The notes under the pieces are model-generated. The model did not search any database and had not been told where the DNA came from. It saw only the letters and a program-made list of their open reading frames with translations. A stretch of 57,314 bases of DNA, from contig JAWAQK010000007.1 of NCBI GenBank assembly GCA_038893995.1, forward strand, positions 1 through 57,314. The letters are read 5' to 3'. Made by a program: the position numbers and the translations under genes. This document shows positions 21,853-28,610 of the stretch, in pieces (the first letter of the stretch is position 1; each line of letters begins with the position of its first letter). Source of the DNA: Candidatus Thorarchaeota archaeon (lineage in GTDB: Archaea > Asgardarchaeota > Thorarchaeia > Thorarchaeales > Thorarchaeaceae).

Positions 21853-22620
21853 TTGAGCAAGAAGAAATGGGGAAAGACGACTCAGAGAACTGAACGTATA
21901 GTACGGGACGCAATACCGGAACCAAAGACACTCGATGAGATCAACCAGTATCTCAGCAAGGCAAGGTCGTTCACAGAGTTTGATATTGCAAACAAGTTCA
22001 ACGTCCGTGTGAGTGTCGCACGAAGGCTCCTACGTGACATGGAACGGAAGGGCACTATCGTTCCATACATCAGAGAGTGCGGGTTTGTGGCCTACACCAC
22101 ACCTGCAGAGCTGGCCAGGAAGGATACAGAACGTCCTGTCATACTTGCGGACGTATTGGAAGATGTGGCCAGAGCAACACCTGCTACGCCCTTCATGACG
22201 GAAGAGATGGAGCTCGCCCTGGCAGCTGCCTCGCTCGAGTCTATGAAGCCCTCGAAGATTGCTCGTCAGCGTCGTGCTCTTGGAGAGCGCAAGGAACGTG
22301 TCCGGGAGAAGAAGGCCATGCCACCCGAGACGTTGGAGGTACCCCCTGCACCTGCTCGTCGCGAGGAAAGCGATACGCTTGCGGATCTGACTGAGGATGA
22401 ATTGGTCGCTGCAACTTCGGAAGTCTCTCCTGCCGATGAAGCTACAGACACACAACAGAAGGTCAAGAAGAGAACCTCAGCTAGGAGTTCAAAGACCGCA
22501 AAGAAGGCCGAACCCACCTCAGACGAGGTGAAGGAGCCTGAGCCGAAGACTGATTCTGGTACTCCCAGCAAACCAACTCGTAGAAAGAAGTCACAGGAAT
22601 CAGTGTCTAGCGACGAGTAG
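21853..22620 (+). CDS. rps25e: Ribosomal protein eS25 with long C-terminal extension
   Basis: KKKWGK N-terminus; winged-helix core TEFDIANKFNVRVSVARRLLRDMERKGTI...YT; about 170 extra residues. Confidence 0.75.
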   Translation: MSKKKWGKTTQRTERIVRDAIPEPKTLDEINQYLSKARSFTEFDIANKFNVRVSVARRLLRDMERKGTIVPYIRECGFVAYTTPAELARKDTERPVILADVLEDVARATPATPFMTEEMELALAAASLESMKPSKIARQRRALGERKERVREKKAMPPETLEVPPAPARREESDTLADLTEDELVAATSEVSPADEATDTQQKVKKRTSARSSKTAKKAEPTSDEVKEPEPKTDSGTPSKPTRRKKSQESVSSDE

Positions 22621-22773: not shown

Positions 22774-23427
22774 CTACTTTCTTGATGCTATCTCTCTCTC
22801 TAGCTCTTCCAGCATCCTGTCTAGTTCTGCCTCTTTCTCCTTGTACTCGGCTTCTGCGATGTACCCTCTCATGTAGTCGAACCTGACATCTGTAAGCTGT
22901 GCCTTCAGCTTGTCCTTCTTCTGTAGGAGGGCGGCGAGTTCCTCATCCACGGGCTCTGGTTTCCGTGGGATCTCAGTCGCTTTCGCCGCTGACGTCGGTG
23001 CTGGTGTCGGCGTGGGTGCTGGTGTAGCTGCAGCAGGTGTCGGCTTCGTGACCGGCGCACTGGGCTGTGGGGTAGCATGTACCGCCGTCGGCGTCGTCAT
23101 CCCAGCTGCAGGTGTTGTTGGTGCACGAGCCTGCGTGGTGACGGTCTTCTCGGCTGGAGGTGGGGTGGGCTGGGGTGATGTCTGGACGCTCTCCATCATC
23201 TCCATGTTTCGGCGAAGCATCTCGATCTGGTCTGCGATCTGAGAGAAGCTATCGTTTATGGTCTTGCTGACCTCTATCTTGAGTCTTGCAAGGGTCTCGG
23301 CCAGCTCATCAGCAAGTCTCTTAGTTTCGACGACCTTATTGGCAAATCCTTCTATTGCTCTCAGCTTCTCCAGTATCTCTGTGATATTGAAGCTCATAAC
23401 AGAGTCACCCACAACTGTAGTTAGCAT
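22774..23427 (-). CDS. Coiled coil + Pro/Thr/Ala linker + SHOCT-like C-terminal hairpin protein
   Basis: C-terminal FDYMRGYIAEAEYKEKEAEL; start may be 23397. Confidence 0.75.
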   Translation of the reverse strand: MLTTVVGDSVMSFNITEILEKLRAIEGFANKVVETKRLADELAETLARLKIEVSKTINDSFSQIADQIEMLRRNMEMMESVQTSPQPTPPPAEKTVTTQARAPTTPAAGMTTPTAVHATPQPSAPVTKPTPAAATPAPTPTPAPTSAAKATEIPRKPEPVDEELAALLQKKDKLKAQLTDVRFDYMRGYIAEAEYKEKEAELDRMLEELEREIASRK

Positions 23428-23494
23428 CTACTCCGGTAGTGTGTTCTTAACCTTTGTCGTGACCTACAAGCACCTAGTCCTGTCAGGCATATTC

Positions 23495-24346
23495 TCAGGA
23501 GGGCTTGGTGTCGGTCTTGCCCTCTAGAATGGCCCTGCGTATGATCTGGATCAGTCTGTCACGGTAGGATATGTCAATCGCAACGAGTTCATAGGTAGGA
23601 ATACCTAGTATCTGCCCCACTCTCTCTGGGGTGAGGGCCATAGGGAGGTCCTGCTTGTTTGCAATACCTATGATCCTTGCGTCCGGAACGACCTCCCTGA
23701 CCATCGTGACTAGCTTCTTGCTCCTGAGCACGTTCTCGAGAGTGCTGTCCGTGACGATCACGACTACCTGTGCGTTTGCGACCATCTTTGCCCAGATCAC
23801 ACTGAACTTCGACTGGCCGGCAACATCCCACAGGACTATGTTTGCAGCGCTCACTTCACTGGGAAGGTTCTTGATGCTCACTCCTATGGTGGGTTCATGT
23901 ACGAGTGGGAGAGTCTCACCTCTGAGTAGGCGCAATGTGGTCGTCTTCCCCACTCCAGCAAACCCGAGGATTGCCACCTTGACCATCGTGACGGTGATCT
24001 CGTCTACCTTCACATCGAACCCGTCAAGAGATTGGCCTGCGAGGGCGACGCTTGCAAAGTCCTTCATGAACAGGTCTAGAAGTTGTCTCATCTTCTCCTC
24101 GATCTGCGCGGTGTCGTCGGCCTTGTCCGCGACGAACACGAATGTGAACTGTGACCTCCTAGCATAGAACAGTCTTAGGGTCGACACGTTCATGAAGTCG
24201 ATTCTATCTCCGAGGTCGACACGACTCAGAAACTGAGATAGACTTGCAATGAATTCGGTGGTACCATCTGCGGGCTCGGTTTTCGCGTACTCCTTGCTGT
24301 AGAGTATCTCGTGGTTCGGACCGATGACAAATACTCCTCTAATCAC
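23495..24346 (-). CDS. Longin-domain small GTPase (Arf/Rab-like, Asgard type)
   Basis: Longin-like MIRGVFVI...ILYSKEY; G1 GFAGVGKT, G2 PTIG, G3 WDVAGQ, G4 NKQD. Confidence 0.9.
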   Translation of the reverse strand: MIRGVFVIGPNHEILYSKEYAKTEPADGTTEFIASLSQFLSRVDLGDRIDFMNVSTLRLFYARRSQFTFVFVADKADDTAQIEEKMRQLLDLFMKDFASVALAGQSLDGFDVKVDEITVTMVKVAILGFAGVGKTTTLRLLRGETLPLVHEPTIGVSIKNLPSEVSAANIVLWDVAGQSKFSVIWAKMVANAQVVVIVTDSTLENVLRSKKLVTMVREVVPDARIIGIANKQDLPMALTPERVGQILGIPTYELVAIDISYRDRLIQIIRRAILEGKTDTKPS

Positions 24347-24351
24347 TTACC

Positions 24352-25464
24352 TCACCCCCACGCCTCCAATAGGAGCTCAAAGAACCTGATGACGGTGGCA
24401 CTGTCGATCTGTCCCTGTGCGTGCTTCTTCACGATAAGAGGCAGCAAATACTCCGGTAAGAATGTTTCGAAGACCGGATCCGATATGAGGGCCCAGACCT
24501 TCTCAGTTTCGTGGAATGACACTACTCTTGCAGGCTCCAAGGCGTATAGCTTCGACTCTAGTAGAGCCCCAGGAATCATGGTCTGGGACGAGAGCTCTGC
24601 TGTCGTCATTGGTCGTTCCCTCAGGTATCTGAGAACCGTGTAGTTGAGACTGTCGCTCACTATCGATGCAATCCTTACCCTGTCTTCAGTGACAGGAGAC
24701 ACGGGCGACGTCCCTTCCTGTATGGGATTGTAGCCCGAGAAGAACTCTTCCACTTTTCCTCTGTACCATGGATAGATGTTCGGATAGATTCCCTTGCAAT
24801 ACTCAAGTGCCTTCACAGGCGGCACACGATATCCAATGATATCCTTCACCAAGAACACGGTTTCAACACCCTGTTTGGGAGGATTCGCCTTCTCATCTCT
24901 GCCCACGAATTCCACCTTCACTATTCCCCCCTCCATCATGGGCAGCACCACCTCTTTCAAGTCAATCATATCGGTCTGAATACTGCTTCGAAGCCAGGTT
25001 TCCAGACTTCTCGACCTGATGGCCCCCTCTGCCTGCAGCTTCTCAAGCACCAGACTTGACGAGGATATCGTGAGCAACTTGGCGCAGATCTGTTCTTCGC
25101 TGGGCGCCGGAATCACAGCCTTCCGCCTGATGATCTCGCCTACATCCATAGAGCCGGGGGCCTGCCTGGCCAGTATCAGCATCAACCTGCTCATGCCGGC
25201 GAGTAGTTCCGAGTTGTTCACGATGTCCTCGTCGTAGTTGAGCACGAAGCATACCATCCAGCCAGGCTGTGACTCATCTGTGAAAGTAGCAATTCTCTGG
25301 TCATTGACGTTGCACAACTTGAGGCCTGCGCCGGGTGTGTCTGTGTACTCCATGTAGACGAGATTGAGCAGTCGCTCATTGAGGCTGAATGTTGACGGAT
25401 ACCTCTTTGCAACTACAAATCCCTTGAACTCATCCAAATGTAGTATGAACACGGCCTGGGGCAT
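24352..25464 (-). CDS. Longin/uDENN-like N-terminal domain protein with winged-helix regions
   Basis: AVFILHLDEFKGFVVAKRYP resembles the uDENN FDxxxGPxxxxxYP start; wHTH-like YTVLRYLRERPMTTAELS; 5 bp from the GTPase gene. Confidence 0.65.
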   Translation of the reverse strand: MPQAVFILHLDEFKGFVVAKRYPSTFSLNERLLNLVYMEYTDTPGAGLKLCNVNDQRIATFTDESQPGWMVCFVLNYDEDIVNNSELLAGMSRLMLILARQAPGSMDVGEIIRRKAVIPAPSEEQICAKLLTISSSSLVLEKLQAEGAIRSRSLETWLRSSIQTDMIDLKEVVLPMMEGGIVKVEFVGRDEKANPPKQGVETVFLVKDIIGYRVPPVKALEYCKGIYPNIYPWYRGKVEEFFSGYNPIQEGTSPVSPVTEDRVRIASIVSDSLNYTVLRYLRERPMTTAELSSQTMIPGALLESKLYALEPARVVSFHETEKVWALISDPVFETFLPEYLLPLIVKKHAQGQIDSATVIRFFELLLEAWG

Positions 25465-25648
25465 TCTGGGGTTTCAGAATCAGCCGACCAACAAATATCT
25501 TTGCCCACTGTCTCTTGGAGGCGGTGTTCCCACTCGCCTCTCCTCTACTACCTCCGACTCCCAATTCTCGGGGAGACCGACTTGGGCGCCCGTTCGTCCC
25601 CTGATCTGTGGCGTCGCGGTCGCGCTTGTCCTGTCTACTCTAGAAAGT

Positions 25649-27994
25649 GTGAAAAGCAATGTCTATTGGTCTTCCATCAGGCCTGCGATGAACGAATCCT
25701 CTCCTGGGGTAATACTACCCGTCCTGGCAGTACAGCAGCTGGAAACCACCGCTCACCACAGGATATACCAGGCCGTGCCACATGGATACGCCTTGGCCTC
25801 TCATCTCTCTGCAGTCCTGGAGTCCGTTGACTCGCGCGATATCGAATTCATGCTCGAGTGTCATCTGCCGATTCGCCTCTACTGCGGTGACTCGGAGAAC
25901 GAGGTCCTGCTCCTGGAGGAACTTGCCATCTTCTCTGGATCGTTCGACATCGTAACACCACCGGATCTTGGTGACCTTGTTACTGTAGTTGAGTCCGCTG
26001 CTGATCTGGAATCGCTCCTACGTGCAGTAGGGGCTGTTGAGAATAGGCTTGACGCGACCGTGTCTGAGACCATGACGATACCGGGCCTGCTTCCCGAGTA
26101 TCTCGCGACCGATATCTTGTCACTTGCTGACTGGCCTACACGGAGTACATGCCCGGCTGTAGTCATAGTGCCGTCGACCCTCAAGGCCTCCGATCTCGAC
26201 AGACAAGTCTCAGTCCTGCGTCATGCTATCGCATCTGCGCGGGATTTCACGGAGAACATGAGTCGGATCCTAGGTGCAGCTCGCAGTCTGTGTGTCAGCG
26301 GTTTCTCATCATTTGAGAGGGCCATGCTTGACAAGATCGAGCGTCTGGACCTCAGGATACTTCGACTGAGATCGGAAGTTGAGTCGATATCTGAACGATT
26401 GCGCGCTTCTGAAACAGACACCCGTAGACGAGATCAGCATGCTGTGCAGGAACTAGAGCGTCGTCGCATCGCATTGGAAAGGGATGAGACACATCGCCGG
26501 TCGCTAGGAGAGCAGCTAGACTCCCGACGGGCCGAACTCATGACCCGCCTCAACTCTCTTGAGGAGAAGGCCCGTCGCCTGATGAGCCAGATGAGTGAAC
26601 AGGAGTCCCGATTGCGAGGCGCTTGGAGTGAGCACATTACTGCCGGTCTGAGGGGTATCAACAGGATCATGGTCCCCTTTGTCGTCGTGGGGTACTCTGA
26701 GAAGGGCGTCCTCAAGATCGTCTTCCGTCCTCCCTCTATCATTTCGTCACCGTCCGAGAGAGGTCGAAAGAGAGTTCGTGTCAGCGACAACATAGTGTCT
26801 GCCAGCAAGTCATTTCTGTCCCTTTCCGAAGCACTTGGACGAAGGACCCAGAGTGACGTCGCCCTCCTTGACCACATACGTAGGGCAGGCGCGAGGTCCA
26901 ACATCCTGTCACTCAAACAGACCCGAGACTCTCTCCGTGAGGGACTCTCTCTCTTGGTCGCGGAGGGCATCCTCAGGAAGCCGCAGTTGCTGGAAACGGA
27001 ACGTCTGCTGTCCCGTTTCCCTGAGACAACACTACCTCCGCCAGTTTCGTCAGCTAGATCTCTTGTCATTCCCAAGAGTGACGTAGTGACAGTCAGCTTT
27101 GCTGTGACTGATGAGACAGGGCATCCCGTTGTTGGTGCCAAGGTGACAGTCGACGGAACAGACCTTGTCACTGACGGCAGAGGCATCTCCAGTTTCTATC
27201 TGGCGGAGGGAAAGCACCATGCAAGTCTGTCCCTGGACGGACTCATGCCCACCGATTTCGAATTTGATCTGACATCTGGTGGCGACGTCGTAATCCCCGT
27301 CGTCCTCAGACGTTTAGGACAGGAGATGGGTATAGAACTCCTTGTTGAACGAATAAGGAGGAGGGCCCAGACGATCGACAACCTGCGCAAGAGGTTACTT
27401 CCAGTCATCGATGAACACCGAGAGCGGCTTCTTACCGACCCTGAGAACAGGCACGATCTTGAGACACTACTGAGTGAGCTTGGATATGATCCTGATAGGT
27501 GGATATCCAACGCGCGCAATGGGGGAGGCAAGTTCTCTAGACTATTGACTCGAAGCGGCCGCGACAGCCTTGTGATGATGTGCATGCTGTCCCTCATTGA
27601 GGCGTCCAGATCGGTAGGAGGAATGATGCATCTTGAGGAGGTTCTGTACAGTCTTCAGTCTCAGGGAGTAACAGTGACGCCGGCCGAACTAGAGCGGATA
27701 CTGAACACAATGAAGAAGCAGGGTCTCATCCATGGTGTCGTGACACTGGATGGGACCAAGATCGTGGATTTCATTCCTGTACAGCACTCGGGCGATCCGG
27801 AGGAGATACTGAAACTGGCTGCCAAGAATGACTACAAGTTGACTGCAGAGGTCGTTGTGACATCTCTTGGCTGGACAATGGCGAGAGCCCGGCGGTCGCT
27901 TGACTATCTGGTAGAGGTCGGCACTGCTAAGGTTGAGAACCTCTACTCGAGCGGCTCCATCTATCATTTCCCGGGACTAAAACGAGTTCGATGA
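25649..27994 (+). CDS. Multidomain protein: coiled coil + PEGA/carboxypeptidase-regulatory-like beta-sandwich + C-terminal EAP30/Vps22/Vps36 (ESCRT-II) tandem winged helix
   Basis: GGMMHLEEV...FIPVQHSGDPEEILKLA...SLGWTMARARRSLDYLVEVG...YHFPGL matches the Vps22/36 C-terminus; VTDETGHPVVGAKVTVDG...TDGRG; start uncertain (25649 GTG or 25688 ATG). Confidence 0.8.
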   Translation: MKSNVYWSSIRPAMNESSPGVILPVLAVQQLETTAHHRIYQAVPHGYALASHLSAVLESVDSRDIEFMLECHLPIRLYCGDSENEVLLLEELAIFSGSFDIVTPPDLGDLVTVVESAADLESLLRAVGAVENRLDATVSETMTIPGLLPEYLATDILSLADWPTRSTCPAVVIVPSTLKASDLDRQVSVLRHAIASARDFTENMSRILGAARSLCVSGFSSFERAMLDKIERLDLRILRLRSEVESISERLRASETDTRRRDQHAVQELERRRIALERDETHRRSLGEQLDSRRAELMTRLNSLEEKARRLMSQMSEQESRLRGAWSEHITAGLRGINRIMVPFVVVGYSEKGVLKIVFRPPSIISSPSERGRKRVRVSDNIVSASKSFLSLSEALGRRTQSDVALLDHIRRAGARSNILSLKQTRDSLREGLSLLVAEGILRKPQLLETERLLSRFPETTLPPPVSSARSLVIPKSDVVTVSFAVTDETGHPVVGAKVTVDGTDLVTDGRGISSFYLAEGKHHASLSLDGLMPTDFEFDLTSGGDVVIPVVLRRLGQEMGIELLVERIRRRAQTIDNLRKRLLPVIDEHRERLLTDPENRHDLETLLSELGYDPDRWISNARNGGGKFSRLLTRSGRDSLVMMCMLSLIEASRSVGGMMHLEEVLYSLQSQGVTVTPAELERILNTMKKQGLIHGVVTLDGTKIVDFIPVQHSGDPEEILKLAAKNDYKLTAEVVVTSLGWTMARARRSLDYLVEVGTAKVENLYSSGSIYHFPGLKRVR

Positions 27995-28181: not shown

Positions 28182-28487
28182 CTACCATTCCTCGTCGTAG
28201 TCCTCTTCGTAATCGCTCTCGTAGTCGGTGAGATAGTCTTCTTCTTCATCCTCGTCCGTGAAGTCCTCAAATTCCTCTTCTTCTTCCTCGAATAGGAATG
28301 TATCGGGGTCTGGCTCCTCCCTTATCTCACGTCGTTCACGTCTGACCCTGGGTTTCTGGACTGCCATACACAGGTTATCCTCTGCGTCGTAGTATGCGCA
28401 CTCTGGACAACACTCACCACGATGATCACATAGGCTGTACGCATCACATCTCTTGCAGCATTTGAGTTCTGAGGAGTTCTGTGACAT
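28182..28487 (-). CDS. Small Cys-rich protein with highly acidic tail
   Basis: CCKRC..C..CCPEC..C (8 Cys), a basic patch, then a D/E-rich C-terminus. Confidence 0.7.
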   Translation of the reverse strand: MSQNSSELKCCKRCDAYSLCDHRGECCPECAYYDAEDNLCMAVQKPRVRRERREIREEPDPDTFLFEEEEEEFEDFTDEDEEEDYLTDYESDYEEDYDEEW

Positions 28488-28610
28488 GTTATGCAACCCA
28501 CTCACTTCCCCGCCTCAAATGGCAAATAAGCGTCTCCAAAGGAAACCGGTCCCCGTGGACGTTTCATGAGCACGAGGCAAGGTTAAAAACTGCCCGGAGT
28601 GTGGCCTCAA

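Follow-up and report, generated by a model that had tools for sequence, protein, structure and literature searches.

Do a small GTPase and a subunit of the endosomal sorting complex ESCRT act as one machine in an archaeon? The question is raised by four neighbouring genes of a Thorarchaeota archaeon, at positions 22,774 to 27,994 of what we call the window, the whole stretch of 57,314 nucleotides that was analysed (contig JAWAQK010000007.1 of assembly GCA_038893995.1, positions 1 to 57,314). The source is a metagenome-assembled genome (MAG) of 2.33 Mb that is 91% complete. Three minus-strand genes, encoding a longin and winged-helix protein (P0003), a longin-GTPase fusion (P0002) and a coiled-coil protein (P0001), lie head-to-head with P0004, which encodes a long paralogue of the ESCRT-II subunit Vps22. 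An earlier note, made from the sequence alone, had joined all four into a separate GTPase-regulated membrane-remodelling or sorting module. We found that P0003, P0002 and P0001 form an ancient, conserved GTPase operon apart from the canonical ESCRT cluster, and that P0004 is a genuine extra ESCRT-II-type protein; these parts of the proposal stand, and the union of the two into one module is not supported as it was put. The locus is best explained as two units that are neighbours by descent and not one machine, a reading to which we give a probability of about 0.62.

Identity of the four genes

All four open reading frames (ORFs) are present as they had been placed, and the observation of the four-gene locus is confirmed with corrections to two gene starts and the removal of a SHOCT domain. 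Based on an alignment of orthologues, the start of P0004 was moved from 25364 to 25688, and the same alignment reset the start of P0001 to 23397. The P0003 stop is followed after 5 nt by the start of P0002, in which residues 122-268 match Pfam Arf (64.5 bits, 1e-17). A profile of 25 P0002 orthologues found Arl1/Arf1 in the PDB at 6e-16, and the G1 (GxxGVGKT), G3 (WDxAGQ) and G4 (NKQD) motifs are all invariant among the orthologues. Residues 1-118 superposed on longin folds with template modelling (TM) scores of 0.75-0.82 (coatomer zeta, the first longin of FUZ/MON1/HPS1, and sybindin); this domain was judged on a protein atlas model, and P0003 and P0004 on AlphaFold2 (AF2) models. The Arf match, the superposition and the spacing bear out the earlier description of P0002 as a longin-small GTPase directly downstream of P0003. 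P0002 is without the N-terminal amphipathic helix of true Arf proteins, the 118-residue longin domain filling its N terminus.

P0003 gave no family in searches of Pfam and NCBIfam. In its AF2 model, made with 28 orthologues (predicted local distance difference test, pLDDT, 90; predicted TM score, pTM, 0.85), residues 1-101 form a longin fold of the order beta-beta-alpha-beta-beta-beta-alpha, and two winged helices follow. The protein had been described as longin/uDENN-like with a winged helix; the longin and the winged helices were both recovered, and the term DENN-like is true of the longin (uDENN-type) part alone.

P0004 had been called a multidomain ESCRT-II protein, which the data support. 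Its Pfam EAP30 (PF04157) match scored 38.3 bits against a cut-off of 26.8, a profile comparison with human SNF8/Vps22 reached 7e-16 over residues 559-770, the core matched 3cuq_A in Foldseek at 6e-7, and VIA gave a Z of 10.9-11.0. The AF2 model (pLDDT 80) shows a leading helix and two tandem winged helices by secondary structure at residues 545-760, with further domains ahead of them. A weak EAP30 match on another contig of the genome (C2) was rejected, being the C-terminal winged helix of MCM.

P0001 consists of a conserved N-terminal helical region, a linker rich in Pro, Thr and Ala, and a C-terminal coiled coil. It gave only coiled-coil matches below threshold in Pfam; the SHOCT family (PF09851) was without a match even at E <= 10, so the label SHOCT-like was dropped and the C terminus is read as a generic coiled coil.

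Conservation of the operon and of its neighbour

Synteny was compared in 40 Thorarchaeia genomes, over a stretch of ~19 kb surrounding each P0003 orthologue; 39 of the loci belong to one family (f1). P0003, P0002 and P0001 are adjacent in all 39 f1 genomes. The distance from the P0003 stop to the P0002 start is -10 to +2 nt in each of these loci, with an overlap in 33, and the P0001 gene lies 78-290 nt downstream of the GTPase gene in 34. Orthologues of P0003 were present in 86 of 87 Thorarchaeia genomes.

The P0003 orthogroup of this locus is confined to Thorarchaeia. A census of 400 Asgard genomes at E <= 1e-15 placed members of the wider P0003 family in 282 of them, often in several copies (285 clusters at 50% identity). 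Members in Odin-, Loki-, Hel-, Hod- and Freyarchaeota are annotated as hypothetical, and in one source a homologue carries the name ArsR family regulator. In Freyarchaeota (one of the genomes, that of Ca. Freyarchaeum deiterrae, is closed), a P0003-like gene stands directly before a full-length longin-GTPase gene, which is followed by a gene for a 110-aa coiled-coil protein. The pairing of P0003-like and longin-GTPase genes also occurs in family f15, the gaps in both groups being 12-30 bp, and in Hodarchaeota a P0003 paralogue lies tail-to-tail with a longin-GTPase. Among 20 P0003-family loci outside Thorarchaeia, none had an EAP30 gene nearby.

P0004 is distributed differently. When its profile was run against the same 400 genomes, full-length matches came only from Thorarchaeia and the others were Vps22 proteins of ~250 aa. 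The source genome has its canonical ESCRT cluster, with Vps22 (261 aa, C27:1460-2245), Vps25 (C27:2220-2969), Vps4 and ESCRT-III, on contig C27 and a second ESCRT-III gene on contig C54, whereas P0004 is on contig C7. A scan of the window's contig for Snf7, Vps25 and a second EAP30 domain gave no match, and the location of the canonical genes on C27 and C54 shows that the earlier note was right in finding Vps25, ESCRT-III and Vps4 absent from the window. Of 41 Thorarchaeia genomes with a completeness of 90% or more, 40 have canonical Vps22, and these include the ones without P0004.

Of the 39 loci, 33 have P0004 as the operon's divergent neighbour. In six genomes, each 95-99% complete (G005, G011, G013 and G077-G079), it is missing with no remnant in its slot, while the trio and canonical Vps22 are kept; these represent independent losses in at least four lineages. 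Three apparent cases of P0004 without P0003 (G012, G033 and G058) were set aside as they are explained by contig ends or scaffold gaps. The synteny across genomes that the earlier note had proposed as a check is therefore present, but equally so for the housekeeping flanks: the whole 14-kb neighbourhood, with S25e, Glu-tRNA synthetase, AlaX and ThiI, is as syntenic as the P0004-operon adjacency, and so adjacency inside family f1 says little about function.

Is P0004 linked to the operon?

The four genes could still encode one machine, in which GTP-bound P0002, set by P0003, would recruit P0004 through its N-terminal extension and P0004 would bring in Vps25 and ESCRT-III. That 33 of the 39 loci show the divergent adjacency, and that both P0004 and the P0003 orthogroup are restricted to Thorarchaeia, agrees with such an arrangement. 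There is also a published precedent in multidomain Asgard proteins that join ESCRT-related domains to longin (PMC10936438); the same paper notes that Asgard ESCRT-II paralogue numbers vary. Two further observations weigh against our reading of two separate units. In a genome of the sister family (G001), P0003 has moved to another contig, beside a nucleotidyltransferase gene, although P0002, P0001 and S25e are separated from P0004 by 2.4 kb and three genes; despite the rearrangement, the GTPase and coiled-coil genes have thus stayed within 1-3 kb of P0004. In addition, a paralogous module on contig C14 also has a large partner gene; as the partner contains a CarboxypepD_reg-type beta-sandwich, a pattern of a GTPase module plus a variable large partner is conceivable. 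A single machine is, however, difficult to reconcile with at least four independent losses of P0004 in which the trio was kept, with operons in other classes that have no EAP30 neighbour, and with a synteny that does not exceed what the adjacent housekeeping genes show, and we consider it unlikely.

Two comparisons bearing on a link did not discriminate. Complex prediction of P0004 residues 1-545 with GTP/Mg and P0002 gave a score of 0.00, which is evidence for neither side. In a mirror-tree analysis with partial Mantel correlation over 28-29 genomes, the residual correlation of P0003-P0004 and P0002-P0004 was 0.46-0.48, equal to that of P0003-P0002, and ~0 against a fast-evolving neighbour. 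After Vps22, Vps25 and S25e were included (17 genomes), all pairs correlated at 0.40-0.74, those with S25e among them; rate covariation is thus non-discriminating and was rejected as evidence of a link.

The divergent spacer is GC-rich without a clear shared element, and in relatives it measures 138-994 bp. The metagenome runs that contain the window stretch are three DNA runs of one hot-springs study, one of them perhaps the run from which this DNA was assembled, with no RNA run listed.

A functional coupling of operon and P0004 is accordingly unproven, and we lean against it; a link specific to this lineage seems improbable. That P0004 would be the effector of the neighbouring P0002, set by a C9orf72/NPRL-like P0003, and would recruit Vps25 and ESCRT-III to defined membrane sites, is in our view quite unlikely. 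We therefore continue with the two-unit reading and consider each unit in turn.

P0003 and the longin regulators

In a whole-chain Foldseek search with P0003 the top six matches were all GATOR1 NPRL3/NPRL2 chains (E 4e-4 to 3e-3, TM ~0.2). For its longin domain the best match was a Lokiarchaeal longin at Z 10.6, next to NPRL2 at Z 10.2-10.4 with 116-119 residues aligned; the matches at Z 10.6 and 10.4 span 114-116 residues. The VIA alignments of P0003 with NPRL2 span chiefly the longin domain. The longins of Lst4, DENND1A, TRAPP and adaptors score within ~1 Z of these best matches.

Residues W33-D34 and G38-P39 of human C9orf72 are reported to be essential or specific to GTPase-activating protein (GAP)-type longins (PMC12290439). 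Among 70 diverse members of the P0003 family we noticed a motif W10-D11-x3-G15, with W in 57 (81%), D in 52 (74%) and G in 64 (91%), followed by P in 13. At the level of sequence, the W-D-x3-G spacing of this pan-Asgard longin-winged-helix family matches that in C9orf72, a likeness newly noticed here. The motif lies at the strand 1-2 junction, with G15 just ahead of strand 2. P0003 itself has L-D-x3-G-F, with L in place of W and F in place of P; in its orthologues G15 is invariant, and the next residue is F, L or I. W-D-x3-G is among the best conserved features across the P0003 family, and the best conserved of all is FLxxDxxxxRxPP in winged helix 1, whose R213 is present in 69 of the 70 members.

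These likenesses suggest that P0003 and P0002 could be a true GATOR1- or CSW-type GAP pair in which one longin supplies the catalytic arginine: the P0003 longin is nearest to NPRL2-type longins, its family has the C9orf72-like motif, and C9orf72-SMCR8 likewise has an Arf-like GTPase as its client (PMC12290439). However, the strand 4-5 loops of the P0003 and P0002 longins, compared across classes, have no conserved arginine, that of P0003 being DESQPGW. This loop is where a counterpart of NPRL2 Arg78 would be expected. The substitutions of W and P in P0003 itself and the near-tie of its Z-scores with TRAPP, DENN and adaptor longins also count against a true GAP pair, as does the search of the whole genome with Pfam NPR2 (PF06218), C9orf72-like and DENN, which found nothing (for NPR2 at E <= 1). 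We regard the GAP pair as possible but doubtful. As no conserved arginine finger was found, P0003 could act as a GAP, a guanine nucleotide exchange factor (GEF) or a scaffold. We therefore take the P0003-P0002 pair to work like a longin-platform regulator and its GTPase, and do not assign it to GATOR1, FLCN or C9orf72-SMCR8.

The winged helices raise another explanation, that P0003 is a transcription factor whose longin senses the GTPase and which regulates the divergent P0004. Winged helix 2 is similar to the domains of ArsR/SmtB repressors (Z 9-10), the P0003 profile matched PagR in the PDB at 1.4e-4, and both the divergent arrangement and the ArsR annotation in one source fit such a role. 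The protein is strongly acidic, though: its net charge averages -16, and each winged helix is net negative (winged helix 2 mean -3.7). Conservation in the recognition helices is confined to hydrophobic core positions; together these features disfavour a DNA-binding regulator. The P0003 family also persists where P0004 is absent, and it occurs as a C-terminal fusion on giant LamG/Ig-like surface-type proteins; we judge a transcription factor to be very improbable.

In two proteins of a public collection, P0066 and P0073, the whole P0003-family module of longin and two winged helices is fused to the C-terminal end of proteins of 1600-1900 aa that carry LamG and Ig-like/CarboxypepD_reg domains. 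These fusions hint that the P0003 family may act in the cytoplasm as an adaptor for giant surface proteins.

The source genome has two more modules of a P0003-like gene and a longin-GTPase, one at the end of contig C1 and one on contig C14. The latter (L080, G000 contig C14, 6136-15430) has four genes in a row in one direction, encoding a P0003-like protein (386 aa), an Ig/CarboxypepD_reg protein (2162 aa), a longin-Arf-like GTPase (301 aa) and a coiled-coil protein (188 aa). The 2162-aa surface-type protein has a C-terminal membrane anchor.

The second Vps22

The P0004 region ahead of its Vps22 core contains four domains (Table 1). A Pfam scan of residues 1-545 found nothing besides the beta-sandwich, and no GLUE/PH domain was detected. 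The order of elements in the head fits a longin by AF2 secondary structure, a likeness in order only. Comparison of the N-terminal domains of P0002, P0003 and P0004 by hhalign gave nothing, and the same comparison also missed the two confirmed longins. For the N-terminal domain of P0004 the protein atlas gave no usable lead, and a profile of residues 1-445 run against a large protein collection returned the query alone, its candidate list being swamped.

In a tree of EAP30 domains, the P0004 orthologues and the canonical Thorarchaeia Vps22 form separate, fully supported clades on long stems, and the backbone is weak. Forcing the two Thorarchaeia clades together gave a better score (log-likelihood difference +9.3, approximately unbiased test p 0.67). 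Since this grouping is not rejected, an origin of P0004 by duplication on the Thorarchaeia stem is compatible with the sequences, though it is not shown by them.

The EAP30 core of the window's own P0004 has the longest terminal branch in this tree (1.23 substitutions per site, where the median is 0.14) and shares at most 42% identity with any orthologue. The genome with this divergent P0004 comes from a hot spring and is small, at 2.33 Mb against 2.2-4.3 Mb in relatives.

Flanking genes

On the operon side, the locus is flanked by an AIR-carboxylase-like gene, AlaX, a sugar nucleotidyltransferase and ribosomal protein S25e, and on the P0004 side by Glu-tRNA synthetase and ThiI. The S25e ORF is 255 aa long and relatives align only over its first ~150. 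A gene for a small Cys-rich protein without a Pfam family (CCxxC...CPEC in relatives) adjoins the Glu-tRNA synthetase gene in almost every Thorarchaeia locus that was examined. In Thorarchaeia without P0004, the slot between operon and Cys-rich gene holds a multi-pass membrane protein of ~270 aa (MNRLSHILFA...; L065:7626-8462, L066:7797-8618, L071:1312-2100). In other relatives the genes are spaced widely enough for such a gene beside P0004; the window has no such room.

Table 1. The four genes of the locus, their domains and adjoining features, with positions in the window.
Feature	Position	Strand	Remarks
P0001	22774..23397	-	207 aa; third operon gene; start by orthologue alignment (MSFNITE...)
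P0002	23495..24346	-	longin and Arf-like GTPase fusion
P0002 longin domain	23993-24346	-	residues 1-118
P0002 Arf-like GTPase domain	23498-23992	-	residues 119-283
P0003	24352..25464	-	370 aa; longin and two winged helices; first operon gene
P0003 longin domain	25129-25464	-	residues 1-101
P0003 winged helix 1	~24817-25113	-	residues ~123-214
P0003 motif FLxxDxxxxRxPP	24817-24870		residues ~199-216; in winged helix 1
P0003 linker GYNP...DPNSP	between winged helices 1 and 2	-	conserved
P0003 winged helix 2	~24451-24702	-	residues ~255-338, 257-335 in the AF2 model; terminal helices also present
Divergent spacer P0003/P0004	25465..25687	.	223 bp
P0004	25688..27994	+	768 aa; long Vps22 paralogue; start by orthologue alignment
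P0004 N-terminal alpha/beta domain	25688-26182	+	AF2 model
P0004 helical hairpin	26186-26620	+	145 residues; AF2 model
P0004 middle alpha/beta domain	26663-27013	+	AF2 model
P0004 transthyretin-like beta-sandwich	27083-27316	+	Z 12.9 to carboxypeptidase D transthyretin-like domain
P0004 Vps22/EAP30 core	27320-27991	+	leading helix and two winged helices; last 224 residues
S25e ORF	21853-22620	+	S25 family match at residues 3-82
Cys-rich protein	28182-28505	-	

Discussion

In eukaryotic ESCRT-II a long Vps36 pairs with a short Vps22, and the GLUE domain of Vps36 binds lipid and ubiquitin. Based on the two-unit reading, the following account of the locus can be given, in which all the physical contacts are ones that we infer. 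The first unit is the ancient Asgard operon, in the order P0003, P0002, P0001. The longin of P0003 would pair with that of P0002 to give a two-longin platform like those of NPRL2-NPRL3, FLCN-FNIP, C9orf72-SMCR8 and Mon1-Ccz1, and this platform would control the nucleotide state of the P0002 G domain, with the acidic tandem winged helices of P0003 probably serving as a protein-binding adaptor. The second unit is the Thorarchaeia-specific second Vps22, whose C-terminal core would be expected to join the ordinary Vps22/Vps25 encoded elsewhere. Such a pairing would resemble that of long Vps36 with Vps22 in eukaryotes, and the 545-residue extension would supply an input.

Like the known longin regulators GATOR1 NPRL2-NPRL3, FLCN-FNIP and C9orf72-SMCR8 (PMC12290439; PDB 7t3b, 8fw5), P0003 is a longin protein; its C-terminal part is of winged-helix type, and it is encoded together with its Arf/Rag-like GTPase. 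It differs from these systems in that no arginine finger was found, and it has no DENN module and no Pfam-level membership. The architecture of P0002 is that of the Asgard longin- or roadblock-fused Arf/Rag-like GTPases already published (10.1101/2020.10.19.343400; PMC10933270), and longin-GTPase fusions together with NPRL2-like longin proteins have been published for Thorarchaeota (Liu 2021 preprint 10.1101/2020.10.19.343400; PMC10933270). In strain MK-D1 the GTPase genes lie generally outside operons with longin or roadblock genes (Tran 2024, PMC10933270), whereas P0002 is translationally coupled to a longin gene, a pairing that is kept across several Asgard classes.

The C terminus of P0004 shares the complete core of Vps22/SNF8/EAP30 (PDB 3cuq_A, 2zme_A, 1u5t_A) and of the ~250-aa Asgard Vps22. 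It differs from the latter in its 545-residue N-terminal extension and in being a second copy, with its gene apart from Vps25, Vps4 and ESCRT-III. Eukaryotic Vps36 is also a long subunit, with an N-terminal input region ahead of its EAP30-type core; however, the core of P0004 is nearer to Vps22, and Pfam detected no GLUE/PH domain in P0004. The two resemble each other in layout alone, with independent origins.

In the literature that was searched, we found no description of the long (770-aa) Vps22 paralogue or of the P0003-P0002 operon. Asgard genomes have been reported to have one Vps22/36-like gene each (Hatano 2022, PMC9192718), and the second Vps22 of Thorarchaeia qualifies this statement of a single such gene per genome. 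In at least one Asgard class, then, a short and a long ESCRT-II stalk-type subunit occur together, a layout that parallels eukaryotic Vps22/Vps36 with an independent origin. If the two units were linked, this would be a first example of a GTPase-controlled ESCRT-II outside eukaryotes, which the present evidence does not show, and if P0004 were an effector of P0002, a prokaryotic small GTPase would exert control in the role of the eukaryotic Vps36 GLUE domain.

Asgard archaea have many eukaryote-like GTPases without known regulators or targets. Genome layout rarely helps to match them (PMC10933270), and the partner GTPases of GAP-like Asgard longins have been posed as a question (PMC12290439). 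The operon described here provides a ready-matched GTPase-longin pair that is kept across several Asgard classes and is open to biochemistry.

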